From: a virus
Virus record (IMG/VR): IMGVR_UViG_3300032323_003835
Span: 32,001-96,000 of that record
Direction: 5' to 3' (one strand)
Length of the DNA stretch: 64,000 bases
Shown: positions 47,700 through 64,000 of the stretch, piece after piece
Layout: each line of letters opens with the position of its first letter
How positions within the stretch are numbered: the stretch's first letter is position 1
The notes under the pieces: generated by a model
Database searches by the model: none
Told to the model about the DNA's origin: nothing
The model's input: the letters and a program-made list of their open reading frames with translations, nothing else
Position numbers and translations under genes: made by a program

Positions 47700-48600
47700 A
47701 TCTATTTTAAAATATCCGAATGGATAGGCCAGTCAGTGTGCGTACGCGCATTGGTAGACACTTACTACGTGCGCGGGTCCGTATCTAAATTATAATAACA
47801 AGCCGTACTTATACTATAATATGTCGTCATGAATATGACGCCCCGGTCATGTGCGTACGCGCATAGGTAGGGTCAGGTCTCCTGCAAAAGAAAAACGGAA
47901 AGGAAGAAGGGACCCCCTGCGGAAACCCTAGTTCTATATTTTAAAGTATCATCTCAAGAACTATATCTTTAAAAAACATTAAAAATGAGCATATACGGCC
48001 CCCCTTTTTTACCCCCCTAAAAGCCCCACTTTTACCCCCCTATTTTAGGGCCCTTTTTAGGCCCCGTTCCCCCCAGGCTCCCCTAGGGCTAAATAATGGG
48101 CCTTTTTGGTGGGCCCGCCCCGGGGATCTAATAGGGGTTTTTCACATCCTTTTTTAGGTGTGAGTCCTCCCCTTACTATAGAAAGGATTTACAAGCCGGT
48201 GGGGGCACCCCGAATTGGAATTCTAGGAATTTCCCTTTTTCCTACTTTTTCCGCGGGGGCACCCCGAACTGATATAAATAGGAATTCCCTGTTTTTTAAA
48301 CTTCATGCTTTTTTGAGTGAGCCCGCCCTCGGTGTAAGATAAACTCAAATTTCCAACTGTATGGTTTTTGAGTGAGGGCGCCTACTATAGTAATTACCTA
48401 TTTTTCCCTTTTTCCATTTTCCCCGTGGGGGCACCCCGATTTGAAAAACCACAAAAATGGGTTTATTTGGTTTTTTTGGAAACTTAAGGTTTTCCATGTG
48501 GAGGTGCCCTCTCCACGATAGCCTATAAGTTTGATTCTAAACCTTACCCCATAAAAAAACCTTCCAATTTCTTGGAAGGCTTCTCGTTAACTCAACACTT
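47700..48600. other. GC-rich non-coding repeat region
   Basis: No credible ORF; 15-bp direct repeat tgtgcgtacgcgcat, homopolymer C/G/T runs, clustered GGGCRCCC motifs. Confidence 0.7.
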
Positions 48601-48618
48601 ATTAACTAACCACAAACA

Positions 48619-48786
48619 CTATTTTCTTTCTATTCTTTTTCTGGCTCTTTCTTTCGGTCTGGGATGGGTATTGATTTTACCACATGAGCAAACACTTGAT
48701 TTATATTCCTCGTTCCGTTTGAACATGATTGTGTAACCATGCCTACATGCGGAGCAGATAACGTACTTGTCTCTTAGTCCTGTCAT
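48619..48786 (-). CDS. Small Zn-ribbon-like protein (55 aa, not in ORF track)
   Basis: CSAC...CSCG, overlaps upstream stop, followed by terminator near 48551-48581. Confidence 0.5.
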   Translation of the reverse strand: MTGLRDKYVICSACRHGYTIMFKRNEEYKSSVCSCGKINTHPRPKERARKRIERK

Positions 48787-49028
48787 CTTAGAGATTTTTC
48801 TCCTTTAACCCAATCCTCCATTGTCTTATAACTCCAGTAGGTTGTTTCTCCATCTCTTGATCTTTCGCTGTAGAAATTTTCAAATATGTATTCCCACACT
48901 TTCTTATATGAGGAGGCTTTAAATTCCCAGAGGAAGTAAGCCGTGCCTATGAGTAGGAAGGCTAATAACTTCCATACTAGATAAGCATAACCGAGGATGT
49001 ATTTTAATACTTCAAAAATCCATTTCAT
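48783..49028 (-). CDS. Small membrane protein
   Basis: Hydrophobic N-terminus; own promoter-like motif. Confidence 0.6.
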   Translation of the reverse strand: MKWIFEVLKYILGYAYLVWKLLAFLLIGTAYFLWEFKASSYKKVWEYIFENFYSERSRDGETTYWSYKTMEDWVKGEKSLR

Positions 49029-49073
49029 GTCCTTGTGTTTTATAAGGTAAATGTAAGTCTTTTCCTCGTGTAA

Positions 49074-49277
49074 TTAAAACGTCTGAGGACCGTTTTTTCT
49101 ACGGAAGGGTTTGAATCCGTTGGCTTCAATTGCTATCTTAATACAACCCCATGCCACAATGGCTAGGCTTCCTACAGCCATCGATAGGGTTGGGTGTTCT
49201 AGATATAACACGTAACAGAAAATTAAAGTGGCTGCAAGGTAAAGTACCGATCCGATAATAAAAGTTGTTTTTGTCAT
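49074..49277 (-). CDS. Small two-TM protein
   Basis: Two hydrophobic segments; own promoter. Confidence 0.6.
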   Translation of the reverse strand: MTKTTFIIGSVLYLAATLIFCYVLYLEHPTLSMAVGSLAIVAWGCIKIAIEANGFKPFRRKNGPQTF

Positions 49278-49353
49278 AGTGGGGTTATTTGATTATGAAG
49301 CTAAATTAAATAAAACCCGCGGAAGTAAAAAATGTTTCCGCGGGTTGGTGTGA

Positions 49354-49518
49354 TTAACCTCCTTTAAGAATAAGTTCTATTCTAGCAGGGATTACCTTTT
49401 CTGCATTACATTCGTCGCAGCACTCTTCATCCTCCTCACCTAGATTTCCTAGCGGTTCTGGGTTGTTCCCGAATCCTTCTACTTCCTTGTCGCAAAGACA
49501 GCATTTAAACTTTTCCAT
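49354..49518 (-). CDS. Small Zn-finger protein (start revised)
   Basis: MEKFKCCLC..GFGNNPEP...CCDECN..VIPAR; promoter directly upstream. Confidence 0.7.
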   Translation of the reverse strand: MEKFKCCLCDKEVEGFGNNPEPLGNLGEEDEECCDECNAEKVIPARIELILKGG

Positions 49519-49700
49519 GTGTGTGTTTTTAAGTGTGAGGTAAAAGTATGAATAATCCGCGAAAGAAAAAAATGTGCATGGAAAGAATTCCAAGAATTCC
49601 AGTGAGGGCGCCTTTACAAGGATAATCCAAAAAATCCAAACTTTGGTTTTTTCCGTGGGGGTGCTCTCACGCGGTTTAGCTAAGATTTAGCTTTCACTTG

Positions 49701-49735
49701 CCACAAAAAAAACCTTGGAAAATTCCAAGGTTTTT
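49701..49735 (-). terminator. Intrinsic terminator (representative of about 14 in 48.5-62.2 kb)
   Basis: ccacaaaaaaaaccttggaaaattccaaggttttt: hairpin plus U-tract plus GUGG on minus strand. Confidence 0.8.
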
Positions 49736-49757
49736 AAAAAGCATGTAATACTAGTTA

Positions 49758-50150
49758 TTACATTTTCCAAATACTATCTAATAAAGCTTCTTTAAAATCT
49801 TTATAGGTTTCTATATTTACACGCATTTGCATAAATTCATATTCATGATTATCAAAATCTGCAACAACTAATCTATAGTATTTTTCTTCAGGTGTTAACA
49901 GGTATGCACAAGGACAATTTTGATAATACACAATTGCTAGTACACACATAGGTTGTACATTTTCAAAATTATCAAGGTTTTCTGCATAACCTGATTTTTT
50001 CCATTTTTCACTTTCACTAGGATTTTCCCAAATTAGCATTAAATATTCGCTATCAGAATCATCAATTGATAATTTGTAATCTTTCATTTTAGAATCTTTT
50101 GCTAGTGATTCAAGCATTTTTTCTGTGAAATCTTTTAATAGTGCTTTCAT
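49758..50150 (-). CDS. Hypothetical protein (cassette gene)
   Basis: Flanked by promoter and terminator. Confidence 0.7.
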   Translation of the reverse strand: MKALLKDFTEKMLESLAKDSKMKDYKLSIDDSDSEYLMLIWENPSESEKWKKSGYAENLDNFENVQPMCVLAIVYYQNCPCAYLLTPEEKYYRLVVADFDNHEYEFMQMRVNIETYKDFKEALLDSIWKM

Positions 50151-50390
50151 GTGTTTGTGTGTTTAAGTACATATAAATATAAGCATTTTCCCCGAAAATT
50201 AAAAATGCCCCGTAAAATAAATTCAAGCTATACACTTACCCGTGAGGGCGCCTTTACGATGATAATCCAAAAAATCCAAATTTTGGTTTTTTCTCCGAGG
50301 GTGCCCTCACTAACAGTTAATGGAATTTTTCAAGAAAGCTATCCCCACAAAAAAAGTCCCTAAGGACTTTTTTAAATCTGTGAGTTTGGA

Positions 50391-50567
50391 TTAAACCCTT
50401 ACCTTCCTTAGTTTTGAAACTGCTGCTTTTAAAAAGGTAAAGATTATGTAAACAACTGTTCCGTAAAACAGAGCTACACATAAACCCCAAAATGAAAATG
50501 CTGCTTTTTCTACTCCATCTAAAGATTGGAATAAGTTTAATGCTTCGGTGAATTTTTCTGATAACAT
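50391..50567 (-). CDS. Small membrane protein (58 aa, not in ORF track)
   Basis: AAACACGACATG leader, promoter 50598-50631, terminator 50345-50372. Confidence 0.65.
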   Translation of the reverse strand: MLSEKFTEALNLFQSLDGVEKAAFSFWGLCVALFYGTVVYIIFTFLKAAVSKLRKVRV

Positions 50568-50597
50568 GTCGTGTTTTTTTAGTGATTAATTACAAGG

Positions 50598-50631
50598 CAA
50601 ATATAGGATATTTCCCCGAAATAAAAAAATG
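50598..50631 (-). promoter_or_regulatory. Early promoter CATTTTT-N6-CG-N11-TATATTTG (representative)
   Basis: Bacteroidota -7 element TAnnTTTG; same spacing at 53197, 54144, 55055, 56119, 56872, 58730. Confidence 0.8.
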
Positions 50632-50786
50632 TATTTGAGGTTAATTATACAAAATACCTCATTTCGGGGTGCCCTCTCCGATTGATGTGTTTTTGATGTA
50701 TTTGCGTAACTCATTAGTTATTAACATGTTAACTCAGTTGGGGGCGGACTCACTAGAGTTACGCATAGGGAAGATTAGGGAAAATA

Positions 50787-50820
50787 CCCCTTCGCGAGCG
50801 CGGGGTCCTCTCCCCCTCCC
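50787..50820. repeat. 34-bp exact repeat with 52353-52386; CG-rich motif B
   Basis: ccccttcgcgagcgcggggtcctctccccctccc; variants cgtacgcgtgcggggtcc at 54262, 56160, 61323. Confidence 0.85.
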
Positions 50821-50877
50821 CTCCACAAAAAAAAGTCTGAGATTGCTCTCAGACTCTTTGTTTCCTCTTTCTTTTGC

Positions 50878-51096
50878 TTAGAAGTACTTTCTTCTTACAT
50901 GCTTTGGTGTTCCTGGAGGTCCTATGGATTCTCCCCCTGCATCTAGAAACATAAACCCTTTATATGAATCGCTTCGCATTAGAACATGCTCCAGTACACA
51001 AATCATGCCTTGCTTTTCATCTAAGGTGTTTCCATCGTTAGCGAGTTGCTCATTAACGAATGCCTTTATCCTTTCTATCTCAAAAGTCTTTCTCAT
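50878..51096 (-). CDS. Hypothetical protein
   Basis: LEHVL....YKGF.FL..RRKYF; followed by terminator. Confidence 0.65.
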   Translation of the reverse strand: MRKTFEIERIKAFVNEQLANDGNTLDEKQGMICVLEHVLMRSDSYKGFMFLDAGGESIGPPGTPKHVRRKYF

Positions 51097-51098
51097 GC

Positions 51099-51275
51099 CT
51101 AATCTTTTAAAGCCATTTGTTTAGCTACTAGAACCTTAGCGTAATGTTCCCAGTTAATGTTATCTGTTTGTAAACCTTCTTGTTCCATCTTACATCTTCG
51201 AATTTGTACCAGAAGAGGAAGATTGATAACTGAATCTCTTGTAATGTAATTGAGAATGTTTTCGAATTGAATCAT
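51099..51275 (-). CDS. Hypothetical protein (start revised)
   Basis: ATG directly after promoter motif. Confidence 0.55.
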   Translation of the reverse strand: MIQFENILNYITRDSVINLPLLVQIRRCKMEQEGLQTDNINWEHYAKVLVAKQMALKD

Positions 51276-51429
51276 GACGTTGTGTATTAGTATGAGGCTA
51301 ATGTAAACCATTTCCGCGACAAATAAAAATGTGGAAGGAAAGAATCCCAAACACGGATCCACCGTGGTGAGGGCACGCCCACAAAAAACCTCCGGTTGGA
51401 GGTTTCTTTTCTTTTTATGTTCCTATGAC

Positions 51430-51795
51430 TTAGTAGTATTTCTCCTGGCTCATTCTACGAAGAGCATTATAAAGTAATACTGCTTCTTCCTCTATATTAT
51501 GTAAGTCTAATACATTACCTCTGTACATAATCTCTGGTGCATTCTTATCAACTGTTACGGATGTGTTAAGAACGCTAGCTACTATTACACCAGGTTTAAT
51601 TTCTCTTACGTTACTTACATAACCATACATATCTGAGCTACCAATAGCTTTATGAATGGAACGTAGTGACTTGCGATCTTCCTCGTTTTCATATCCCATT
51701 GCGTGTTTAGCTCCCTTTGCTAATCTAGAAAACAAGCCTTCAGGCTTTCTCATTGGACCTTCTTGGAAGTTTTCATATATCTGAAGATGTTTCAT
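51430..51795 (-). CDS. Protein with MKHLQIYE leader
   Basis: N-terminal motif; GATATATA at 51814-51821. Confidence 0.7.
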   Translation of the reverse strand: MKHLQIYENFQEGPMRKPEGLFSRLAKGAKHAMGYENEEDRKSLRSIHKAIGSSDMYGYVSNVREIKPGVIVASVLNTSVTVDKNAPEIMYRGNVLDLHNIEEEAVLLYNALRRMSQEKYY

Positions 51796-52002
51796 GCTCC
51801 TATTGTTTTCATTTATATATCCAAACCAACATCCGCAAACCGGGTGAGGGCGCCTTTCCGAGGATAATCCGAAAATTCCATTTTTTCTCCTTCTTCCGTC
51901 GAGGCGTCCTCACCCCGCTTAGCTAAGGTTAAGCTGAAGTAATCCCACAAAAAAACTCAGGACAAAGTCCTGAGTCTTTAATAGTTTAAACTTTAACCCA
52001 AT

Positions 52003-52293
52003 CTAACTATAATATGGATATACTCCCTCACAAAGATTAAGATATGAATCTATAAAGAAACCATACCCTGCATCTTTTAATGCTTTACTTACATTATGAC
52101 AGATATGACCTCTCGGTTCAGTGTCATGCACTTCAGGGTAAATGAGACCGATGAGGGTTTGTCCCTGCTCTATCTCTCCCAGTATTTCTTCTCTTGTGAC
52201 CCTAACGTTTGAATGAATCTTTTTGCAGATTCGATTAACTAGTGTTTCGCATGCCTTATCTCCGGCTGCTGAGTACATTTCATAACTTTTCAT
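52003..52293 (-). CDS. Hypothetical protein (start revised)
   Basis: MKSYEMYS..GD...EVHDTEPR; promoter upstream. Confidence 0.65.
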   Translation of the reverse strand: MKSYEMYSAAGDKACETLVNRICKKIHSNVRVTREEILGEIEQGQTLIGLIYPEVHDTEPRGHICHNVSKALKDAGYGFFIDSYLNLCEGVYPYYS

Positions 52294-52752
52294 ATGTGTG
52301 GTTTTAGAATACAAATATAACATGGACGTGCGGGGAATAAAAATGCAAAAACCCCCTTCGCGAGCGCGGGGTCCTCTCCCCCTCCCCTCTGTGTGTATTC
52401 TATCGGGAATGAGAATCAAAACATTATTATCGAGGTGAGGGCACCCTCGGATGATTTCCAAATCCGATCAAAAGGTTATATCTCTATGTGGTTGCGCCCT
52501 CACCTCGATTACGCTAGCGTAAAGTGCTTTCCACCGCGCACAAAAATGGCCTGAGATAAAATCCCAGGCCATTCTCGATTAGTTTAATCTATTGATGTTG
52601 GAGATAACTATTTCGCCAACTTCATTCTTTAGGGTTTCCCAATCCTCTGGGGCTAGTGCATCCTCGATGCCTATTCCTTCCAACAGACTTATTAGGTCTT
52701 CCTGCATTTGTTCTTTTAATTCTTGGATACTCATACATTTTTATTGAAGATT

Positions 52753-53157
52753 CTAAAATGAGCTTGCTAGTTGTGACCAAGTCTGGGCTTTGTGAATCGG
52801 TCCATTCCAAAGATTCATTTGACCCCAAACCTCTGCCAGTCCTGTGTGTCCACACTTAGGTGTAACAGTGAAAACATTGTCACCAGTTTCTAAAGAGGCA
52901 ATACGAAAATCATCGTATAATGGTCCGTTCATTGGACAGTTGTTCTTGAACCAAACATAATGTCTGTCTAGATCTATTCCTTTGGCTTTAGCAAATTTAA
53001 TAACCTTGGGCATTAGATTCATTGCTTTGCCTTCTAAGGCTTTTTCTGAACAGAACCAATCGTAAAATCCCCAGCAATGTTCGTAATCGCCAACGATTCT
53101 TTTTTCTAATTCAAATGCTTCGATTTGTTCTCTGAGTGTTACTTGAAAGTTTACCAT
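52753..53157 (-). CDS. Hypothetical protein
   Basis: GFYDWFC...YVWFKNNCP..GPLYDDFR; promoter 53197-53230. Confidence 0.75.
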   Translation of the reverse strand: MVNFQVTLREQIEAFELEKRIVGDYEHCWGFYDWFCSEKALEGKAMNLMPKVIKFAKAKGIDLDRHYVWFKNNCPMNGPLYDDFRIASLETGDNVFTVTPKCGHTGLAEVWGQMNLWNGPIHKAQTWSQLASSF

Positions 53158-53435
53158 TTTTTTAATTTTTTAAGGTTTGTGGATTTAAGTACAAGGCAAA
53201 TATATGAATAATCCCCGAAAGAAAAAAATGTTTCGGAAAAATGTTTCAAATCTCTTGGAATGTTTCGGATTCAAGACGGGGTGAGGGCACCTCCTCGGAT
53301 AAAACCCCAAAAAAGGAAAAACTTGGTCTTTTCCGTCGGGGCGCCCTCCAATGATTTTTGGGACGACCCCTAATTTGGATGCCACAAAAAAACCAAACGC
53401 ACGGTTTGGTTTTTTGAATGAGAGTTATGGAGAAG

Positions 53436-53717
53436 TTACATAGACCAAGCTGGATTAGCAACTATTAAAATTCCGTTTTCTATTCTTGGAATCTCTTTGG
53501 TTGAATAAGCATCATCATATTGGATTTGATTCGGATAAAATTTTTGTCCTTTGAATACCACATAGTTTTCATCAGAATCATCCTTGCCCATATGACTATG
53601 TCCCTGACCTCTTAATGAGTCATGAGCTGCATCTTTTACCGTGGGTTTACCGAATATGCTATTCCAAAAGCTTTCGTTAACTTCTGATTGTTCTCCGTAC
53701 TTTTTAAGGTGTTTCAT
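53436..53717 (-). CDS. Protein with MKHLKKY..NE leader (start revised)
   Basis: Internal MKHL start; GATATATA at 53739-53746 plus early promoter near 53751. Confidence 0.65.
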   Translation of the reverse strand: MKHLKKYGEQSEVNESFWNSIFGKPTVKDAAHDSLRGQGHSHMGKDDSDENYVVFKGQKFYPNQIQYDDAYSTKEIPRIENGILIVANPAWSM

Positions 53718-53935
53718 TATCTGAGTTATTTTGTGATTTATATATCTTTCCAAATATAGGTAACCTGGGCGAAATATAAAAATGCCCCGTGGAAAATCAT
53801 GAAGCGATCGGTTAAGCGATTGCTAAGCGGCGTGAGGGCGCCCACTCTCTGTGTTACATCTGTTCCCTTCCAAAGGCCACAAAAAAAAATCTAGACGAAT
53901 TTGTCTAGATTTTGAATTTTAAAATGAAGATGAGA

Positions 53936-54118
53936 TTAACCCAGGATTAGTATTCCTCTTTCTTGTATACCTGATTTTATTTCATCAGTTAACAGAGTAG
54001 AACCAACAGAAGTGAAAATAAATGTGGGTCCTTGAAGAGAAACGAGGTAATGTTCCTGATTAAATATCCCTCTTTCTTCTAGAAATTTGATTCCTGCATC
54101 AATAATTTTCCTTTTCAT
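53936..54118 (-). CDS. Small hypothetical cassette protein
   Basis: Promoter 54144-54177, terminator near 53877-53913. Confidence 0.6.
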   Translation of the reverse strand: MKRKIIDAGIKFLEERGIFNQEHYLVSLQGPTFIFTSVGSTLLTDEIKSGIQERGILILG

Positions 54119-54308
54119 ATTATATGTGTGTTTAAATACAAGGCAAATATAGAATAAATCCTCGGGATAAAAAAATGTATGAATTCGGACATCTACGGAT
54201 CATTATCGGGGTGTGGGTGCCCTCACCATCTCTTTCTGACTTATATCTTTCGATTTTCCATCGTACGCGTGCGGGGTCCTTCCCCTAGCCCCCTACGGGA
54301 TAAAAGGA

Positions 54309-54494
54309 TTAATCAGGTTCTCCTTCATAGTAAACCTTGTTATCTGCTCCACACTTGTGACAAACATAAAGGTCTTCCTCTGATGACTCGGTGGAATTCC
54401 AGTTCCAGCCACATTTATTGCATTCTATTTGGGTAGGAGCCTCATAAGGTTCAACTTCAATCCCAAAGTTCTCGTAGATCTGTAGGTGTTTCAT
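54309..54494 (-). CDS. Small Zn-ribbon protein with MKHLQIYE leader (start revised)
   Basis: CNKCGW.W...YVCHKCG. Confidence 0.7.
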   Translation of the reverse strand: MKHLQIYENFGIEVEPYEAPTQIECNKCGWNWNSTESSEEDLYVCHKCGADNKVYYEGEPD

Positions 54495-54745
54495 AATTCT
54501 ATGTATCCCAAATTCGATTCTAAGCATCGTGAGGGCACCGTGCCCTCACGGAGCCGTTTAACATTTTGTTTAATCTTTTAAACAGAAGGCCCGAACAATA
54601 CTCTAACAATATAAATTCATTCTCTGCGTGAGGGCGCCCACTCGCTGTGTTACGTCGTCCCTCGCTAGAGTTTTACCCACAAAAAAACCCAGACCTAAGT
54701 CTGGGCTTTTAAATCTGTTTGGGATTTAGAAGTGTTTAAGCAATT

Positions 54746-55030
54746 CTAGAATAGCCTGAGTTGATGAAGATTGGTTGTGAGCCCAATGTGCCATTCAATT
54801 TCCTCGTCCATGGAAAGTTTGCGGTATTCTTTCCAATCATAAATTGTGAAAACGATTCCTTCTCCAAGTTCCAGTTCCCATTCCATGTTTACTTTACCTT
54901 CTCCATCATTGTTAGAATAGGAAGGAGGTCCAAAGGTATCAATCAATTGCTGTGGAGATGCACTGAAAACATCGTCATAGAATGAAGTACCGTTAATCGT
55001 TTTTTCTTCTGATAATTTTTTAATGTTCAT
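54746..55030 (-). CDS. Hypothetical protein (possible 3' frameshift)
   Basis: FG.P...GKVNMEW.L...FTIYDWK...EWHIG. Confidence 0.7.
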   Translation of the reverse strand: MNIKKLSEEKTINGTSFYDDVFSASPQQLIDTFGPPSYSNNDGEGKVNMEWELELGEGIVFTIYDWKEYRKLSMDEEIEWHIGLTTNLHQLRLF

Positions 55031-55245
55031 GTGAGTGTGTGTTTAAGTATAAAGCAAATATAAGAAAAAGAGGCGTAATAAAAAAATGCCTCGAAAATAA
55101 ATTTGAAAGTTAGTGTCACAAAAAACACGCTAACATCGGTGAGGGTGCCCCGACTGGTTTTAGCATGGCGTTTACATCTTTGGGTTTGACCCATAAAAAA
55201 AAGTCCTAGAAAATCTAGGACTTTTTGGTTTAATAGGTTTTCTTA

Positions 55246-55515
55246 TTATCCAAAAACCAATTGGCCAACTTGAATACTTCTCCAAGCGAACTTTTCCAAA
55301 TCATAGAATGGAAGAATTTTGGGAGAAGCCTCGTTTCCAGATTTAGGTTGTTGGTCTGCTGGAATATTAGACATGTCTAAAGTTCCATAGGCTAATCTTA
55401 ACGAACCATCTTTTTTTCGGAATGCGAAATTAACTGGTCCTGATTTTAATCTTTGTCTTAGGTCTTCAATTGATGATTCAGGAATTGAAGGACCGGGTGT
55501 CGTGTTTGTTAACAT
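55246..55515 (-). CDS. WYL_2 / SH3-like beta-barrel protein
   Basis: L..G.V.F.FRKKDGSLR.A.GTL...FYDLEK.AWRS. Confidence 0.8.
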   Translation of the reverse strand: MLTNTTPGPSIPESSIEDLRQRLKSGPVNFAFRKKDGSLRLAYGTLDMSNIPADQQPKSGNEASPKILPFYDLEKFAWRSIQVGQLVFG

Positions 55516-55821
55516 GGTTATTTGTTTTTAAGTACGAGGTAAAATTAATAATAAACCTCGAAATAAAAAAATGTTTGGAATAATTTTTTTTCCACCCAAA
55601 ACCTAGCTATGTTCACCTCGTGGACCGGCGTGAGGGCACCCTCGGATGATGTCTTTCGATTCCTCCTCCCGAATTTCGGCTGGAGGACCGATGTATCCGA
55701 TTACGAGGGCGCCCCGACTCAACACTACGTGCAGATGTTTGGAAGAGTAAGTCCACAAAAAAACCTAGAACTTTTGGTTCCAGGTTTGGCTGTGTTTTAC
55801 TTCCAGGTTTGGCAGATTTCC

Positions 55822-56103
55822 CTATTCAATCACTGCTGATATACCAGCATCAGTTAGGGCTTCTTTCATGGGTTGTAATTTGGTTTTACTTCCTGATTTA
55901 ACTTGGCATTTACCTTTCGTATGAATCAATAAAGCGCACTGTTCTGCTTGTTCTGGTGTATGCTTAAGATAATTACATAGACAAGTTATGACCCAGTCAA
56001 ACGTGTTAAAATCATCGTTATACACGATTAATTTGGATTCAATGAAGTCTTCTACTGAGACATCTGATAATTCTACTTCATCTAATTGAGTTGACATATA
56101 CAT
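55822..56103 (-). CDS. clpS: ATP-dependent Clp protease adaptor ClpS (start revised)
   Basis: LIVYNDDFNTFDWVI..L...EQAEQCALLIHTKGK..VK.G. Confidence 0.9.
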   Translation of the reverse strand: MYMSTQLDEVELSDVSVEDFIESKLIVYNDDFNTFDWVITCLCNYLKHTPEQAEQCALLIHTKGKCQVKSGSKTKLQPMKEALTDAGISAVIE

Positions 56104-56189
56104 ATTTATTTGAGAAAGCAAATATAGGATTATATCGCGGAAAATTAAAATGTTTCCCTCGTACGCGTGCGGGGTCCTCCCACCATCCC

Positions 56190-56657
56190 CTAGAACAAAA
56201 TACTCAGTGCCTTTGCTGTATCCTTCTCCTGTTGCTGAGGAGTTGGCGTGTCCTGGGGTAGATTTAGATATTCCTTAAGTATACCCCAATCTTTAGATCC
56301 AACATTAGGAATAGTGATTAGCATAGGTAGCATATCTTCGTGGCTACATCTAAGGTAATCTAATTCCTTCTCCCTCATATAACCAATAATAAATGCCGAT
56401 ATCTTTTCACTTAGGCAGTTGTCGATTGAGAACTTAGCTCCATAATGATGTTTCCAAAAATCCTCTCTCTTATCAGAGGAGTGTAGTTTTAGTCCTAACG
56501 TGGATGCTACCTTGCTTATCTGTTTACTGGTTGTCCTAGAATACTTACCTCTTGCTTGGATGTGACCGTCTTTGATATCAGCAACATGTGTTTCATAACT
56601 GATAACCTTATTACCTTGTAGGAATATGTTGTTACCTAATTTAAAATTTAGTTGCAT
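56190..56657 (-). CDS. Hypothetical protein
   Basis: SYETHVA...GKYSRTTSKQI. Confidence 0.7.
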   Translation of the reverse strand: MQLNFKLGNNIFLQGNKVISYETHVADIKDGHIQARGKYSRTTSKQISKVASTLGLKLHSSDKREDFWKHHYGAKFSIDNCLSEKISAFIIGYMREKELDYLRCSHEDMLPMLITIPNVGSKDWGILKEYLNLPQDTPTPQQQEKDTAKALSILF

Positions 56658-56659
56658 GA

Positions 56660-56851
56660 TTAGAAGTTTATCGGGTTAGGATAAGGAGTAGTTGTGGTCA
56701 TCCATTCACAATTTGTTAAAGAGTAATCTAGCATCTCTTCGATGAATTCATGTGCGTCGTCGCTTGGATTCATGTCATGTAAAGATAGGATATCAACCTT
56801 ACCCGTTTCGAAGTTAAGGATAACTGCATACGATGTTTTTTGTGTACTCAT
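56660..56851 (-). CDS. Small hypothetical protein
   Basis: AAACACGACATG leader, promoter 56872-56905. Confidence 0.65.
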   Translation of the reverse strand: MSTQKTSYAVILNFETGKVDILSLHDMNPSDDAHEFIEEMLDYSLTNCEWMTTTTPYPNPINF

Positions 56852-57036
56852 GTCGTGTTTATTTTATGATGTAAATATATGAAAATGAGGCGGAAAGAAA
56901 AAATGTCCTCGGAAGTATTCATGAATGCAGATAGACTGCACACTTAGGAGTGAGGGCGCCCTGACGATAGACCACAGTTTCTATTTGGATTCCTCCACAC
57001 ACAAAAAACCCTTACCATTTCTGATAAGGGATTTTA

Positions 57037-57981
57037 CTATATTTTTTCTAGAACTATTCCTGTTTGGTATAAAGGTATCTGTGATGCGCTTGGGTTCTGT
57101 TTGGGATAGGATAGCATAAAGACTGTTTGGGGTATATGCTTATGTATAAAGGATCCATAATATTTAAGCTCATCGGTTGCCCCTAATATTTCGTCTATTA
57201 CCATCTTGTGCAATAAATATGGTTGTCCCCCTTGTACCATATCTTTAATTAGGATTACCATCTTAGCACCCTTCCCCATAAAAGGTATGCATTGTATATA
57301 CATCGTTCTTATTAAATCCCAAAACTCTTCACCTTTTTGCAATCCAAAGTTTTCGTTATTTTGGTAATTAAAAGTCTTTTCTGTTTTTACTCCATCCTTT
57401 ATTCTTAATGTTCTTTGAGGTGCATCTGATGAATATCCAGACGCCATTCTAGGATATGGGGTACCATTTAACACTAAAGATATCTGTCCATTTTTTATAC
57501 CATTTCTCCCCAATATGTCGGTCAAATTTCTCGCATCACCATTCTCAAATATATTTTTTCCAGTAGCAGGATCTGTCAATCTCTTATATTGGTGTTTTAT
57601 ATTTGCTGATGATATCTGGGGGAATTCAAGTTCGATCCCTATCCCATTTCTCCCGTGATTTATAGATTCGACTATTGCTGTACCCGTTCCTACCGTAGGA
57701 TCAAATACCCAGTCACCCTCTTTGGTGAAATTTTGAATTGCCCATCTATATCCAAGAAAATGCCCAGGTGCAATATGTTTCTCTGCACTTGGATTGTAGT
57801 AATTATTTCTTGCTAATTGGGAATAATATTTATCTATATCGGTATTGTATATTTCACCCAAGAAGTTTGTTCTACAATATTCGCACGTACAGTGATAATC
57901 CTGGGGTATCCTATCTCTAGACAGGAGTATCTCCGTTATATCAACATTACTGTCGTATTGATTTTTTAAATTTTTTAGCAT
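57037..57981 (-). CDS. DNA amino-methyltransferase-like protein (N4C/N6A)
   Basis: VFDPTVGTGT (SAM binding), GIELE, GDAR, NGTPY (variant of the xPPY catalytic motif). Confidence 0.75.
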   Translation of the reverse strand: MLKNLKNQYDSNVDITEILLSRDRIPQDYHCTCEYCRTNFLGEIYNTDIDKYYSQLARNNYYNPSAEKHIAPGHFLGYRWAIQNFTKEGDWVFDPTVGTGTAIVESINHGRNGIGIELEFPQISSANIKHQYKRLTDPATGKNIFENGDARNLTDILGRNGIKNGQISLVLNGTPYPRMASGYSSDAPQRTLRIKDGVKTEKTFNYQNNENFGLQKGEEFWDLIRTMYIQCIPFMGKGAKMVILIKDMVQGGQPYLLHKMVIDEILGATDELKYYGSFIHKHIPQTVFMLSYPKQNPSASQIPLYQTGIVLEKI

Positions 57982-58706
57982 CTTTTTTTGTTAACATTTA
58001 TTATAGATATTAAATCATTTAAGATTTCTTTAGTTCCTGAAAAATTTCTTTTTCTTAATCTTTCTATATTACCAATCACAGTTTCGGGATTGTTGGACTC
58101 GTTTATATATTTTATAATTTCATCCGAATCACACATGTTTAATAATTCAACATTGGCTTTTTTGTAATCATTCTTCCAGTCCCCTATTGATGATTTGAGT
58201 TGAAATTCCTGAAGCCTCGTATTTTCTGTTACTGTAACGACGTTGCATTTTCTCGCTTCATCCATCAGGTTAAAAAATTCCTTCCAAAGCAAAGATGCCC
58301 CATTCTCATGTATATGTGTTAACACCTTGTATTGATTTTCCCTGTGTTCGTCAACACAGAATTTTTTTTCGTCCAATGACATTAACAGAACCCCAGAAGA
58401 GACATAGAATGTTTCTTTATCATCTTCTATATTAACAAACTTTTTTGTTATGTTATGTATATGCTTTTGATATCCCTGTGTAAGATAATGTTCAAAATTG
58501 CCAAGACTAAATGCTAATTTACTTGGTATGTTATTTTTCCAACAGTATTCCCACTTGTCTTCTTTTAATTCTATAAAGAGAGATTTTATTTGTTGAGTTT
58601 TTAAAACGGGAAATCTGGGATCCTGATAATCCGCAAATTTATTAGATTCTTCTTCTGTACCAAAAATAAATTCGATAAAGTCTTTTGAAATTGATTGATT
58701 TTTCAT
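57975..58706 (-). CDS. Hypothetical protein coupled to the MTase
   Basis: Overlapping stop/start; promoter 58730-58763. Confidence 0.7.
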   Translation of the reverse strand: MKNQSISKDFIEFIFGTEEESNKFADYQDPRFPVLKTQQIKSLFIELKEDKWEYCWKNNIPSKLAFSLGNFEHYLTQGYQKHIHNITKKFVNIEDDKETFYVSSGVLLMSLDEKKFCVDEHRENQYKVLTHIHENGASLLWKEFFNLMDEARKCNVVTVTENTRLQEFQLKSSIGDWKNDYKKANVELLNMCDSDEIIKYINESNNPETVIGNIERLRKRNFSGTKEILNDLISIINVNKKRC

Positions 58707-58933
58707 GTCGTGTGTTTTTAATTATGATGTAAATATATGAAAACGGGGCGTAATAAAAAAATGTCCTCAGGATTTATAGAACCCATACCAATGTTTCCAA
58801 GAATTGATTCAGCCGTTAGTCAGGGCGCCCTCACCACACTATACGCTTTCCCTATGGAGGAAGAAACCTCCACACACAAAAAAGGCCAGACTAATCTGAC
58901 CTTCCCTGTTTACTTACTAACACCTAACCTTCC

Positions 58934-59221
58934 TTATACCTCAACAACCTCTGGTTGTGAAATTTTGTATTCTTTTTTAACCTTTGGCTTTTCTTCGTAT
59001 CCTAAACCGGTGATACACTTATCCATACAACCTACGATTAAATCTGGAGAGATAATATGTCTTTCGTATTTCTTAGGATTTACTACGATATCCTGTTTCG
59101 TGATTTCACAAATATGTAAAATCCTTTCTCTTACAATTGTTAACTCTAATGGGCTTAATTCTTTTATTAGATTTCTAATCAGCAACGAAGCTGATTTTCC
59201 TTTCTTAGGTCTTCTTGGCAT
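58934..59221 (-). CDS. Hypothetical protein
   Basis: 95-aa ORF before terminator. Confidence 0.6.
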   Translation of the reverse strand: MPRRPKKGKSASLLIRNLIKELSPLELTIVRERILHICEITKQDIVVNPKKYERHIISPDLIVGCMDKCITGLGYEEKPKVKKEYKISQPEVVEV

Positions 59222-59227
59222 TTCTTT

Positions 59228-59443
59228 TTATTTATTTTGCAAATTTAATACTTCTACTCGAGAATTAATAATGTTCTGACTCGGTTCCCATTTATGCATT
59301 CTCTGAACTAGGAACTCCGCTGATTGTAGATTATCCGCGGGAATTAAAAGTCCTTTACCTACCGCATAATATCCATCATTCAATCTAAGAACTCTTGGCT
59401 CTCCTGAGGTGTCTATACTGATCCCGTCTGAAAATCTTAACAT
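59228..59443 (-). CDS. Hypothetical protein
   Basis: FSDGISIDTSG..R...DGYY.VG.G.LIP. Confidence 0.65.
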   Translation of the reverse strand: MLRFSDGISIDTSGEPRVLRLNDGYYAVGKGLLIPADNLQSAEFLVQRMHKWEPSQNIINSRVEVLNLQNK

Positions 59444-59444
59444 A

Positions 59445-59657
59445 TTAATTTGTTTTAGGAGCGAACATTTTTCGTCCCATGTTTATAAAGTTATCGTACT
59501 CTTCTTCTCCCATCGCGGATTTTAATTCTTCGACATGAGAGTTATGCTCTTTAATTTTTTCGAGAGCATCCAGCCACTTTCCTGATTCTTTTAATTCTTT
59601 TACTTCCCAGTTGGTGTCTAACACCTTCCTGAAGATTAGAGATTGTTCGTTTGTCAT
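59445..59657 (-). CDS. Hypothetical protein (start revised), paralog of 61526-61723
   Basis: MTNEQ..IF..LD...L...MG..Y..F....MFA; promoter upstream. Confidence 0.65.
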   Translation of the reverse strand: MTNEQSLIFRKVLDTNWEVKELKESGKWLDALEKIKEHNSHVEELKSAMGEEEYDNFINMGRKMFAPKTN

Positions 59658-59733
59658 CGTTTGATTTATTTTATGATGCAAATGTATAAGGGAAGTGCGG
59701 GTTTTAAAAATGTTTTCCCCGCATTTCCTAGAT

Positions 59734-59961
59734 TTAAACAAATAAAGCCATTTCTCCTGGATCCATACTTTCCAAATCGTTAGATCTGATTTCATCATAG
59801 GTGTAACCATCAATGGTAACTATGGTAACTCGGTCTTCATCTTTTTTGGATACATCCTTGACAAAGCAAGGTGTTCCTATCCAGTGCATCATTTCTCTGC
59901 CGTTTAGTTCCCTGAAGAAATCAAAATTCGGGTTCGTGGTTTGGGGTTTTTTTGGTTTCAT
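59734..59961 (-). CDS. Hypothetical protein
   Basis: 75-aa ORF with promoter-like motif upstream. Confidence 0.55.
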   Translation of the reverse strand: MKPKKPQTTNPNFDFFRELNGREMMHWIGTPCFVKDVSKKDEDRVTIVTIDGYTYDEIRSNDLESMDPGEMALFV

Positions 59962-60211
59962 TGTTAGGTTTTTATCTGTTAGTAAATTATAGTACGAATT
60001 TATAACATTTCCGCGGGAATAAAAAATGTTATTCCCCTACAGGGGGAACATGGGGTACTTCAGGTACATGTGGAACATCTGGTACATACAACCGGTGAGG
60101 GCGCCCTGACGTGTTTTACGCCCAGCGTACATCACTAATTCTAGGGCATAAAAAAACCCCAGACTATAAGTCTGAGGTTTAAAACTAAAAATAAACAAAA
60201 ACTATCTCACA

Positions 60212-60865
60212 TTACCAAAGACCATATGAACTGAATAGGTCTAAATCTTTAATCCATTCGTTTGAACGACGAACTGTTTCTGGTATGTATATTTTTTCAA
60301 AGCAATCTGGGCGTTTATCAACTGCATTAATGACCTGCTGGTTATAACTTAATCCTGGTACTAGAATACCAATTTCTTCCATGAACTTTAGGGATTTGGC
60401 TTCTCTATACTTTTTACATTGAGGACCAATTCCGTTTTCAATACTCTCAGGAACAGTTAGAGGTAATCCACATTTGCAACAAATACCTTGATGGTACATG
60501 CCTAGTTTTCCTCCTCCTTCCAACCTTTCCAAATCACCCCAACTTCTTATTAGCCAATTCATGGTTTGTATTCCAACGTGATCGTTAGCAACATATCCAG
60601 ATGGTTTAAACGTTTTCATCTTTCTATCAACTCGTCCAATGTACTTCAAACCCTGATACTGGTCATTCAGTGCACGTACATGAACATCAAAGAGTCTTGT
60701 CTCTTCGGGTTGGTCTCGCTTTCTTTTAAGTTTCTGAACCTTAAATGTGATGTAGGTTCCTTTCTCTTTGTTCTCAAGCGTAAATAGAGCTTTACCCTGA
60801 AAGATGAACGTCTTGAATGCTGCTGCATCCAACTTGTGGCTTGTCGCGTGTTTTAGATATCCCAT
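60212..60865 (-). CDS. DUF6011-like Zn-finger protein
   Basis: GKALFTL, HQGICCKCGLPLTVPESIENGIGPQC. Confidence 0.7.
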   Translation of the reverse strand: MGYLKHATSHKLDAAAFKTFIFQGKALFTLENKEKGTYITFKVQKLKRKRDQPEETRLFDVHVRALNDQYQGLKYIGRVDRKMKTFKPSGYVANDHVGIQTMNWLIRSWGDLERLEGGGKLGMYHQGICCKCGLPLTVPESIENGIGPQCKKYREAKSLKFMEEIGILVPGLSYNQQVINAVDKRPDCFEKIYIPETVRRSNEWIKDLDLFSSYGLW

Positions 60866-60869
60866 GTTG

Positions 60870-61253
60870 TTATTTTGTGTAATAAGGATCCAAATCTGGG
60901 TTTGGAATCATCTTCCAATTCTTCTCTGCTGCACCCTTTGTGGTTCCATAGGTACCTAGCATTATCTCTGTTGAGCAAGACTTAATCTCTCTCAGTGCAG
61001 CTTCGTAATCTCCTCCTTTAATAAACGATTCAATTACTTCAATCTGTGATTGTGGTATTGCTGCTCTATAAACAACAGCATGTCTTTGCTGATTAGCCTG
61101 AGCACGTAGACACATCGCAAACTGCTTAGAATTCTTCTCTTTCTTATCACTATCATTAAAGAATAGAGCTGCTGAAGCATCGTCTATATCATGTACGAAC
61201 GATTCTACACCGTGACAATCTGCTAATCCGTAAAACCAATGAGTTAATTCCAT
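60870..61253 (-). CDS. Hypothetical protein
   Basis: GLADCHGVESF...LRA.AN.QRHAVVY...W.MIPN..LDPY. Confidence 0.7.
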   Translation of the reverse strand: MELTHWFYGLADCHGVESFVHDIDDASAALFFNDSDKKEKNSKQFAMCLRAQANQQRHAVVYRAAIPQSQIEVIESFIKGGDYEAALREIKSCSTEIMLGTYGTTKGAAEKNWKMIPNPDLDPYYTK

Positions 61254-61525
61254 ATTCTATCTTTTTATAGGATAAAAATAAAGAATTTCCTCGGTGAATA
61301 AAAATGTAATTCGATTTACACCCGTACGCGTGCGGGGTCCTTCCCATATCCCCTTCCTAATATGCAAAGCCAAACCTCCTTTAAATGCAAAGCCATATGC
61401 ACACTGAGTCGGGGCGCCCTCGTGGTGTTTTTCGACAGTCAAGAATCGAAAACCTTAGGGCACGAAAAAGCCCTCCATTGCTGGTAGGGCGATTTCTGCT
61501 AACTGGGGGGAGTCAGCGAAGTGAC

Positions 61526-61723
61526 TTATGAAAACAGAGGAGATACTTTTACCATGAATTTGATGTAGTCCCTGAAGGCCATAGTATTCATGAGCTTATT
61601 CTTTTTCTCTTCTATTTTGTATTGAATGTGTGTTTTCCTATCTTCATCTCTTTCTGTTTTTAGGGAGTAAAACAAATCTAATATGTTATTAAATATTTCT
61701 TGCTGTTCCGAGTTAAGGTTCAT
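61526..61723 (-). CDS. Hypothetical protein, paralog of 59445-59657
   Basis: See paralog. Confidence 0.6.
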   Translation of the reverse strand: MNLNSEQQEIFNNILDLFYSLKTERDEDRKTHIQYKIEEKKNKLMNTMAFRDYIKFMVKVSPLFS

Positions 61724-61770
61724 ACAATTGAATCTAATGATGAAATGATAACTATTATATCTTACACATT

Positions 61771-62097
61771 TTAGATTGTTTCGAATTGGGGTTTGAACTT
61801 TTTAACTTGTCCGTAATCCCTAGCATAAACCATAATACGAATTGCTTTAACGATTGTGGAATCTGCTCTGGAAAAGGCTGCTCCCAATTTATCTTCCAGA
61901 ATTGATTGAACGAATCCTCCACCGATACGATATGCGTGCTGAGTCATGTAGATGGAAGCTACAATATCAGTAACATGGCTAATCTGTGAATCATTAAAAT
62001 CCTCTCGTGAAGGATATGCAAAACCTTTAAAGAAATCATTAACAGTTTCAGCTGCGCTTGTGCGAAAATCTTGTTCATCGAATTTTTGTGTGTTCAT
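61771..62097 (-). CDS. Hypothetical protein
   Basis: GGGFVQSIL...L..AF.RAD; promoter upstream. Confidence 0.7.
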   Translation of the reverse strand: MNTQKFDEQDFRTSAAETVNDFFKGFAYPSREDFNDSQISHVTDIVASIYMTQHAYRIGGGFVQSILEDKLGAAFSRADSTIVKAIRIMVYARDYGQVKKFKPQFETI

Positions 62098-62701
62098 GTC
62101 GTGTATTTTTATTTAAGGTAAATGTAATGATTTTCCGCGCGGATAAAAAATGAGAGGTATAAAAAAACCCAAGCTAATAGCTTGGGTATTTTTTTGAAAA
62201 TGAATTCACACGACTAAATTCACATTCGGTAATTGTTGCTGAAAGAATCCTCATTCGTTAAAGCAGATTACCCTTCATTGTTAGATGGTTACCCATCCTA
62301 TTTTGAAGCTCTTATATTCCTGAAACAACTTGTACCAATAAGATGTTTCTGGGTTGTAAATATTGTTATGATTATGCTCCTTCATTATCTTTTACTGCTT
62401 TCTCTTTGGTTTGTTTCACCGGACGAGTAGCTTCTTTCCAAACACTTTTTGGAACGAATTTGTATCCACGATTCTTAACCATCAATTCAGCTTCGTCATC
62501 ATTTACTCTTCTGATATCATTTGCCTTTTGTACCGTCTTCATACTTCTTTAATTTGATTCTGAGTTTGTGATTTTCTCTACATAATAGTCTGTTACGACA
62601 TTTTAGTTTCATGGTTTCTTTACCAGAAATAACAAGAGAAATCAGAAGAACCAATATTGCAAGGCCGGCGCTGATTATTGGGAAAGCCATCTTTGGGATT
62701 T

Positions 62702-62929
62702 TTATTTAGATACTCTATAATATCCGTCAGGACTCAAGGTACTGTAAATTCGTGTTTCTCCGTCTTCAAAATCAACTATGATGTTATTACCCTGCCACAT
62801 TGCTCTAACTGGCTGACCACTAGTTTCGATACTATAAGGGTTGTACTGGTCGATCCATGGACGGAAACATCTTTGTCCATAAGGGATGTCGATTAGACCG
62901 AACATCCTGGCTTTTTCAAAATTACTCAT
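62702..62929 (-). CDS. Hypothetical protein
   Basis: Coupled small ORF. Confidence 0.55.
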   Translation of the reverse strand: MSNFEKARMFGLIDIPYGQRCFRPWIDQYNPYSIETSGQPVRAMWQGNNIIVDFEDGETRIYSTLSPDGYYRVSK

Positions 62930-63138
62930 ACCATTTGGAATTTGATTTTTTCAATCTCGGAAAGGAGCATATCATACTTCTCCTTCCTGTCCTTGTTCTC
63001 TTCTGTTAATTTTTCGCAAAGAAATTTTGCTTGTGTTTTCGCTGCGTTAAATACCTCTTCAAGGTCTTTCTGAGACACGAGGTCCCATTTAAGACTGTGA
63101 TAGATTTTACGAACTAAATCTAGTGCTTCTTTTTTCAT
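62926..63138 (-). CDS. Hypothetical protein (start revised)
   Basis: ACACGACATG leader and promoter. Confidence 0.6.
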   Translation of the reverse strand: MKKEALDLVRKIYHSLKWDLVSQKDLEEVFNAAKTQAKFLCEKLTEENKDRKEKYDMLLSEIEKIKFQMV

Positions 63139-63190
63139 GTCGTGTGTTTTATGAGGCAAAAGTAATACAGTTTCGGGGTAGCAAAAAATG

Positions 63191-63427
63191 CTAATAGATT
63201 CCGTAATCAACTAACTGACATTCGTGATCTTCTAACTTTCTAAGGTCCTTTAGATGAATCTCTGGAAACATATACCACATTGCTTCGTGGAGAGGTGAAG
63301 GTAATACTGCGGGTTGGATTGATGTGACACTACTAGTCTCCCATACCCTAACAACCGTACCAGCAGGAAATCTGTGTCCTCTGAGATTGATTGTTGATCT
63401 TACAATTGCTAATTTAGTGTTTATCAT
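63191..63427 (-). CDS. Hypothetical protein (start revised)
   Basis: ATG directly after promoter motif. Confidence 0.5.
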   Translation of the reverse strand: MINTKLAIVRSTINLRGHRFPAGTVVRVWETSSVTSIQPAVLPSPLHEAMWYMFPEIHLKDLRKLEDHECQLVDYGIY

Positions 63428-63512
63428 GGTGCAAAAGTAACGATCAGGTGCCGGTAATAAAAATGTAGACAGAAAACATCCGCGGAAGTATCCGCAGTGA
63501 TGGTGAGGGCGC

Positions 63513-63998
63513 CTACTCCTCGGTCCAATGGAGAAACATCTGAACGACGTATTCATCTTCTCCACACACTAAAGGTTCTCTCCAATGTTCCAACGTCCGT
63601 CCAGCAACGAGGTTGCCCTCACCGGTTATCGTACGGAATTCGACATTGCCTTCCTCTCCTTTTACTATCAAAGGCCAATCATGTTTTAAATTAGTGAATA
63701 GACAAACAGAAACTGTCCAATCTAAGCCATCGCGGTCTTTGTGTGGATGAAGTGTTGACTCATTATTGTATATGCGGCAATAGGGATTAGCTTCTTTTAA
63801 TTTTCTACCACTTACTTCAGTTACGAGTGGTGTAAATCTTCTAAGACATTCCCAAGCACCGGGGGTGGATCCACCAAACGAATTCTTGTAATACTTGGTG
63901 TCTTTTTCTTCGACTATGGAACCACTTTTAAGGTGTTCAAAGACTTCCAGAGCAAGGTTCTCGCATTCTTCAGGTGATAGAATGCTTCCTAAATTGAA
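63513..63998 (-). CDS. 2OG-Fe(II) oxygenase, 5'-truncated by window edge (not in ORF track)
   Basis: Manual translation: YCRIY...LHPHKDRDGLDWTVSV...WPL...HWREPL...QMFLHW*. Confidence 0.8.
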   Translation of the reverse strand, partial: FNLGSILSPEECENLALEVFEHLKSGSIVEEKDTKYYKNSFGGSTPGAWECLRRFTPLVTEVSGRKLKEANPYCRIYNNESTLHPHKDRDGLDWTVSVCLFTNLKHDWPLIVKGEEGNVEFRTITGEGNLVAGRTLEHWREPLVCGEDEYVVQMFLHWTEE

Positions 63999-64000
63999 AT

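Follow-up and report, generated by a model that had tools for sequence, protein, structure and literature searches.

Short repeated elements dispersed among the genes of phages and plasmids have been described in several forms. The stoperators of the Cluster A mycobacteriophages L5 and Bxb1 are many short intergenic repressor sites that act on elongating polymerase and not on promoters; they are asymmetric, share one orientation, and lie inside transcribed operons. The KorB-OB operators of IncP plasmids and the ParB-parS arrays are dispersed palindromes of 13 to 16 bp, served by one global protein at variable distances from promoters. In Cluster O mycobacteriophages, a 17-bp dyad-symmetric repeat occurs in more than 30 copies per genome, with function and reader unknown (PMC4351075). 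The PeSL cassettes of T4-type phages combine strong host-type promoters, terminators, and ORFans with G-run/C-run dyads, which the authors suspected of binding a protein (PMC2839356). Here we describe an array of GC-rich 16-bp palindromes set among small early genes on the minus strand of a virus contig. The contig is a 111,205-bp IMG/VR record (G000), and the window, by which we mean the whole 64,000-nt stretch of DNA that was analyzed, comprises its bases 32,001 to 96,000; coordinates are those of the window unless given as genome positions. CheckV estimates the contig to be 33% complete, and it has no end repeats, so that statements about the contig refer to this 111-kb portion of the genome. 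We propose, with about as much belief as doubt, that the palindromes are putative operator-like docking sites for a sequence-specific protein, and that they form the boundaries or a global switch of the early cassettes.

The first-pass annotation of the window had reported more than 25 copies of a GC-rich palindrome between positions 48199 and 63514 and no extended copies in the first 47 kb, and both statements held. The motif, GTGAGGGYRCCCTCAC, is an imperfect 16-bp palindrome that gives 14 matches in the window at two or fewer mismatches, far above the chance level of 0.01 expected from shuffled sequences. An unbiased half-site search with no core requirement yielded 39 sites at genome positions 80,206 to 103,093; in the other 88 kb of the contig it returned six partnerless half-sites and no full copy. 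Our curated list holds 38 sites, 29 of which fall within 48199-63514, and the 8-mer GCCCTCAC occurs 25 times within the array and once outside it. The array itself is therefore real, but its reported extent was too short: half-site and motif scans trace it on the minus strand from 48199 to the window end at 64000 and for about 7.1 kb beyond, to genome position 103.1 kb (L003:1-8100), for a total of about 23 kb. All credible copies are intergenic. Noncoding DNA accounts for 28% of the array and equals or exceeds the coding parts in GC content. Neither the window nor L003 gave an Rfam match.

The frequency matrix describes a degenerate palindrome whose promoter-proximal half carries about 7 bits of information and whose distal half carries about 4 bits. 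The majority of copies are degenerate with a single good half, and most keep 3 to 5 of the 8 symmetric pairs. With unbiased site discovery, the stronger half was proximal in 25 sites and distal in 14, a polarity that is not significant (p 0.11). The one extended and perfect palindrome that had been singled out previously is present at 54528-54550, 35 nt before a zinc-ribbon gene, with its half-sites 5 bp further apart.

The palindromes occupy a defined place within a repeated unit. On the minus strand, the order of elements is a hairpin and T-run, the dyad, a -33 box, the word TAnnTTTG, an AAACAC-type leader, and the start codon, and the intergenic gaps that hold the sites measure 100 to 130 bp. 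The array has 17 terminators composed of a hairpin and a T-run, whereas the remaining 88 kb has 8 on this strand; an RTGG tail follows the T-run in 15 of these 17, compared with about 3 of the 8 elsewhere. About 15 were counted in the span for which about 14 had been reported, on the minus strand at 62158-62197, 60147-60186, 58874-58913, 56999-57038, 55754-55793, 55193-55232, 54678-54717, 53880-53919, 51946-51985, 51379-51418, 50825-50864, 50346-50385, 49703-49742, 49306-49345, and 48550-48589, the last being the final terminator of the array. In 11 units, the dyad lies 50 to 57 nt past the first T of the T-run, which sharpens the fixed spacing that had been noticed behind the terminators. Single copies following a T-run in this manner are found at 48498-48513 and 60095-60110 (both 54 nt), 53832-53847 (50 nt), 54628-54643 (52 nt), 55139-55154 (56 nt), 56950-56965 (51 nt), and 58819-58834 (57 nt), and a copy at 51367-51382 abuts the T-run. 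The distance from the dyad to the next -33 box ranges from 35 to 74 nt, with examples at 50663-50678 (39 nt before the box), 54211-54226 (41 nt), and 63503-63518 (45 nt); a further copy is at 61408-61423. Because the distance to the terminator is fixed and the distance to the promoter is variable, we consider the palindrome to be tied to the terminator and not to the promoter.

Strict matches to the -33 box with TAnnTTTG number 13 in the array, and weaker variants occur besides. Ten of the strict matches are in the window, where these promoter-like sequences extend, from -33 box to -7 box and on the minus strand, over 63432-63465, 63157-63190, 59679-59712, 56119-56152, 55055-55088, 54144-54177, 53751-53784, 53197-53230, 52312-52345, and 50598-50631. 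We take the T-rich -33 box and the -7 word TAnnTTTG to be a promoter of the Bacteroidota type, and a scan for sigma-70 TTGACA/TATAAT pairs found 40 compared with 49 expected from shuffles. As a correction to the earlier description, the promoters are of the Bacteroidota -33/-7 type and not of the sigma-70 type. The leader that had been called frequent does occur, with ACACGACATG found five times.

A GC-rich, dyad-symmetric sequence located just downstream of terminators could also be a structural element, either an RNA hairpin with a role in back-up termination or in processing or a DNA cruciform that takes up supercoils, and the site doublets described below fold at -18 to -45 kcal/mol. If so, paired positions should have changed together. 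However, complementary pairs were at or below the expectation under independence at every position pair. At position +/-6, 12 sites were complementary compared with 16.7 expected, and the other 21 were mismatched, a shortfall that arises because GTC...CAC and GTG...GAC combinations predominate. The halves thus vary independently and without compensatory change; therefore the palindrome is not a hairpin, and that reading was ruled out on the absence of covariation. In addition, the 16-mer has no loop, few of its symmetric pairs are kept in most copies, and, being located behind strong terminators, it is probably rarely transcribed. We consider a structural role extremely improbable. The variation points to direct sequence read-out, half-site by half-site.

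Many sites are arranged in pairs. Seven doublets have dyads 53 to 54 bp apart, or about five helical turns, and two further pairs have dyads 73 bp apart, or about seven turns. Doublets with the 54-bp spacing are located at 48199-48268, 51844-51913, and 53281-53350, and those with the 53-bp spacing at 48372-48440, 49602-49670, 50242-50310, and 52435-52503; a 73-bp pair spans 55630-55718. The doublets at 48199 and 48372 belong to the downstream end cluster, one of two five-site clusters that are found at both ends of the array (genome positions 80,206-80,505 and 102,491-103,093) and that both adjoin long noncoding stretches bearing other repeats. Each doublet has a total length of 69 to 70 nt with good outer halves and degenerate inner halves. 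The doublet interiors mostly differ, several being A-tract-rich or containing a small hairpin, and an interior sequence is common to three to four of the seven.

This constancy of length, the folding of the doublets as imperfect hairpins, and the resemblance of their good outer and degenerate inner halves to terminal inverted repeats led us to consider a selfish miniature element of the repetitive extragenic palindrome (REP/REPIN) or miniature inverted-repeat transposable element kind, in which the 69- to 70-nt doublets would be the full element and singlets collapsed copies. The spacers would moreover be extra GC-rich DNA, as the 100 nt upstream of promoters have a GC content of 46% in the contig compared with 33% in the related phage G003, described below. 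However, the doublet interiors are mostly unrelated to one another, inspection showed no target duplications, neither a transposase nor a RAYT-like gene was found, and compensatory changes are absent. Furthermore, no copies occur outside the array, and cellular genomes contain the motif at chance level. A miniature element therefore seems very unlikely.

A 19-nt promoter signature led to two jumbo phages, G002 (430 kb) and G003 (434 kb), both of them complete and with terminal repeats. About 35 proteins are common to G003 and the contig, at 25 to 73% identity, and we therefore regard the contig as a fragment of a jumbo phage of the broad group of G002 and G003. Judging from the promoter type, its host would belong to the Bacteroidota. 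Megablast and tblastn searches against cultured phages returned no relatives, the sole match being a lectin domain in Flavobacterium phages. Our family scan covered about 85 of the approximately 540 open reading frames (ORFs) of 40 or more amino acids in the contig; there were no capsid or replication family matches among these 85 and no terminase match in the contig, which encodes many sugar-modifying and radical-SAM enzymes as well as a Ro60 homologue.

Promoters of this Bacteroidota type number about 45 in G003, yet its genome contains no copy of the palindrome at one or no mismatch, nor any other high-copy GC-rich palindrome. In G003, the homologues of eight array genes are dispersed between 104 and 188 kb, and their order is not that of the array. 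As G003 has the promoters and the gene homologues without the motif, the cassette design is ancestral and the palindrome a lineage-specific addition. We had also considered that G003 cassettes might be compact, with the terminator abutting the promoter, but this was seen in two examples only, and a systematic measure met too few terminators to confirm it. Separately, about 11 promoters at 180,000-192,500 of G003 (L166) have TTTAACG-N6-ATCGTTG in place of the T-rich -33 box; three array genes have homologues in this set, which points to a class of factor-dependent promoters.

The motif is also found in a second, unrelated lineage. A composite search pattern consisting of the motif, a gap, and the -33 box identified G001, a complete 32-kb phage whose terS-terL junction holds four motif copies, all in one orientation, in a stretch of 330 bp (L005:11300-11650). 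One module of G001 resembles the window unit at about 60,100: it carries the same palindrome variant (18 of 19 bases), the -33 box and GC block agree at 17 of 18 bases, the dyad-to-box distance is 72 nt in G001 and 74 nt in the window unit, and both have a C-run/G-run hairpin. Nonetheless, no proteins common to G000 and G001 were detected by blastp or phmmer --max. A diverged relative of G001, L008, whose TerL is 63% identical, has three exact motif copies, likewise in one orientation, at the same junction (L008:1960-2340). Because the copies are exact while the proteins have diverged to about 63% identity, the motif is under selection in this lineage, and because it is present in the unrelated G001 and L008 but absent from the relative G003, its distribution is independent of phage ancestry. 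A two-copy motif pattern matched 61 times in IMG/VR, nearly all by chance in GC-rich contigs, and only G001 and L008 were real.

The terS-terL junction is the usual location of pac, and the array contains a DNA methyltransferase gene. These observations raise the possibility that the palindromes serve packaging or DNA handling, as terminase, pac-like, or DNA entry sites, or that they act as restriction or methylation decoys, the latter having been suggested earlier for a GGYRCC core. However, about 40 sites across 23 kb of early genes are unlike pac sites, and the contig has no terminase match. The decoy proposal found no support, as GGYRCC outside the array is only mildly below its compositional expectation (13 seen compared with about 21). 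We judge this group of functions highly improbable for the array. In G001 and L008 themselves, the motif copies also lengthen a TerS-like reading frame by G-E-G-(T/A)-P repeats, and the region may be a pac region.

A short word of 12 to 18 nt beside an identical promoter box in two lineages without a common protein (G000 on the one hand, G001 and L008 on the other), together with its absence from a protein-level relative of G000, is what would be expected if the sites dock a host protein, such as a regulator or nucleoid protein, that the phage recruits or titrates. A host protein of this kind might be expected to have sites of its own, but among 401 sampled Bacteroidia genomes we found at most one near-perfect site each, except for two in the GC-rich (about 60%) seed genome G005, and genomes with such a site numbered 19 compared with 10 for a reversed control; the host of the phage may lie outside this sample. 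The composite pattern gave 82 scattered single matches in 185,579 species genomes, which is at chance level. One metagenome-assembled genome was pursued as a host lead because it had 10 sites compared with 0 in the control, and was dropped because its GC content is 60% and the sites lie in coding sequence. Recruitment or titration of a host protein in this form appears unlikely. As for the reader in general, it could be encoded by the phage as readily as by the host. Two array proteins are candidates for DNA binding, although neither can be assigned to the motif. One is a stand-alone 47-amino-acid HTH_38 protein (L003:4753-4896, minus strand; E 5e-8), encoded directly before a terminator and palindrome, for which we found no homologue in G003 or G001. 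The other is a 181-amino-acid protein with a Myb-like N terminus, which has a homologue in G003.

The reading that we favor, in which the palindromes are putative docking sites for a sequence-specific protein, draws on their overrepresentation, 23-kb confinement, intergenic placement, fixed distance from the terminator, and independently varying halves, and also on the doublets, the end clusters, the DNA-binding candidates encoded in the array, and the conservation of the motif in G001 and L008; the Cluster O phages provide a precedent for more than 30 dyad repeats per genome (PMC4351075). That the array binds a dimeric protein had been one of the earlier proposals, and this reading is the best fit to the independent halves, doublets, end clusters, and untranscribed gaps, from which we infer both the binding itself and a boundary or switch function. 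The palindrome would be recognized by a DNA-binding protein, as a dimer or as paired monomers, at sites located in the untranscribed gaps of a PeSL-like early-gene block that would be read by host RNA polymerase. Once bound, the protein would mark cassette boundaries and keep read-through polymerase out of the next promoter. Cooperative contacts among the in-phase doublets and the five-site end clusters could then bring the block into one nucleoprotein state, so that its cassettes would be switched together.

Several observations weigh against this proposal. The distance to the promoter varies more than a classical activator or repressor would allow, and no proven mechanism accounts for the constant distance to the terminator. 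The doublet spacing may be partly due to common descent, given the interior sequence that three to four of the seven have in common, and the motif is dispensable for basic cassette function, since G003 does without it. Finally, the contig gave no match to a ParB_N protein and contains no classical repressor besides the small HTH protein.

Like the KorB-OB and parS arrays, the array has short palindromes dispersed at variable distances from many promoters; however, its motif is unrelated to parS or OB, and no ParB_N-type reader was matched in the 111-kb portion of the genome. Stoperators differ in that the array sites are palindromic, have no significant polarity, and are located behind terminators. 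Cluster O phages, like the array, have dozens of palindromes of 16 to 17 bp, most of them between small genes that form a single long block of one orientation. The sequences are unrelated, though, and the Cluster O repeats have invariant arms with a 3-bp center and occur genome-wide without being tied to terminators, whereas the array copies are degenerate and have no center.

As a whole, the array resembles the PeSL cassettes of the T4-type phages RB49 and phi1. Like these cassettes, it forms a hyperplastic block rich in ORFans, with terminator stem-loops and a host-type early promoter and terminator per gene or module, the promoters being recognized by sequence only, and G-run/C-run dyad motifs occur in intergenic modules that are common to unrelated genes (PMC2839356). 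It differs in that a separate canonical hairpin performs termination and the GC palindrome is an extra, nonhairpin element about 54 nt behind it. Its promoters are also of the Bacteroidota -33/-7 type. The defining behavior of PeSL cassettes is recombination at the modules, with mini-circles as a product.

The PeSL likeness bears on a different explanation, in which the palindromes are recombination sites that shuffle cassettes, whether by means of a site-specific recombinase dedicated to the dyad or as PeSL-type linkers for the homologous recombination system of the phage. Regulatory modules are indeed common to unrelated ORFan genes, the left and right halves assort independently as chimeric joints would, homologues of array genes are scattered and nonsyntenic in G003, and the palindrome-plus-promoter module is also found in G001, a phage without common proteins. 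PeSL stem-loops bear G-run/C-run motifs too and recombine into mini-circles (PMC2839356). Shuffling does not, however, predict the doublets, the end clusters, or the fixed terminator distance. A spacerless 16-bp site is too small for known tyrosine recombinase cores, and the variable central dinucleotide (CG, TG, or CA) would block many serine-type exchanges. Comparison with integrons leads in the same direction. Like attC sites, the palindromes are imperfect inverted repeats that separate cassettes of small genes unrelated to one another, but the singlets measure 16 bp compared with 57 to 141 bp for attC with its R''/L''-L'/R' boxes, the 69- to 70-nt doublets have outer boxes without a GTT/AAC core, and promoters and terminators belong to the cassettes themselves. 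The contig yielded neither an integrase of either type, with no match to a tyrosine recombinase (Phage_integrase) or serine recombinase, nor the ParB-like gene considered above; these were the two kinds of gene that the earlier proposals pointed to. The suggestion of site-specific cassette shuffling is thus unsupported by this third of the genome, and we regard shuffling as the purpose of the sites as rather unlikely, although PeSL-type shuffling by homologous recombination is plausible as a side effect.

We also considered a more specific possibility, namely, that the palindrome and a putative reader form a portable boundary system, or else that cassettes are exchanged at a site reduced to these 16 bp by a recombinase still unseen. 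In the former case, the reader, when bound about 54 nt behind a terminator, would be both a roadblock terminator and an insulator between tandem bacterial-type transcription units, for which the TTF-I and Reb1 sites between eukaryotic rRNA genes provide a model, and the site-plus-promoter module would move among unrelated phages of one host. We think this quite unlikely.

Beyond the palindrome, the array contains a second GC-rich repeat of about 38 nt, in which a G-rich run is followed by a near-palindromic core. All six copies are within the array, just before a -33 box or just after a terminator. Five are in the window on the minus strand, at 61321-61359, 56158-56196 (24 nt before a -33 box), 54260-54298, 52355-52393 (28 nt before a -33 box), and 50789-50827 (27 nt after a terminator), and the sixth is at about L003:1064. 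An 18-nt pattern of this repeat had no match in IMG/VR. The noncoding DNA at the array ends has repeats as well. At 47700-48200, the array is closed by a noncoding stretch of about 850 bp in which G-runs alternate with A-runs and which includes two copies of a 21-nt repeat that has an 8-mer in common with the second GC-rich repeat. Upstream of the array, within a noncoding stretch of about 1.3 kb, the 9- to 10-nt word CGCCCCGTA occurs at L003:8395-8515 (genome positions 103,395-103,515) in three direct copies with a 22-bp period, along with inverted and partial copies. This arrangement resembles iterons and may be an origin or a further cluster of protein-binding sites.

The promoters show additional features. 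Short inverted repeats of differing sequence often lie beside the -33 box of those at 50598-63465, and a CGGGG-like GC block separates the -33 and -7 boxes in array promoters, as a CG-containing block does in G003 promoters. The word GATATATA precedes genes at 51795 and 53753 in the window and at L003:4511, 9725, and 11932, where it replaces or accompanies the host-type promoter; the products of these genes start with MKH(I/L)..(Y/F)E.F, and the word may mark a second promoter class.

The array contains 57 ORFs, which are mutually unrelated, include no paralogues, and have few family matches (ClpS, WYL_2, metallophosphoesterase, glycosyltransferase, zinc ribbons, DUF6011, and DNA methyltransferase). 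At 57037-58706, a two-gene operon encodes a 243-amino-acid protein of unknown function and a 314-amino-acid protein with a methyltransferase motif, a pair that is kept together in distant metagenomic relatives (L069). The 243-amino-acid protein has relatives at 91% and 78% identity. Its family alignment retrieved only three short, distant contigs from JGI metagenomes, all without the motif, and had no match in IMG/VR, where single-protein searches with two array proteins likewise gave no match.

Small early-gene blocks are where phages keep host-takeover and anti-defense genes, and outside T4 the ways in which these blocks are insulated, switched, and reshuffled are little known. The array described here is a countable cis-element with a fixed terminator geometry, a motif-free relative that has the same promoters, and conservation in an unrelated lineage, and these three properties together open the reader protein and its function to direct tests. 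Should the reader prove to be a host protein, the motif would be a host-range marker for uncultured phages of Bacteroidota.

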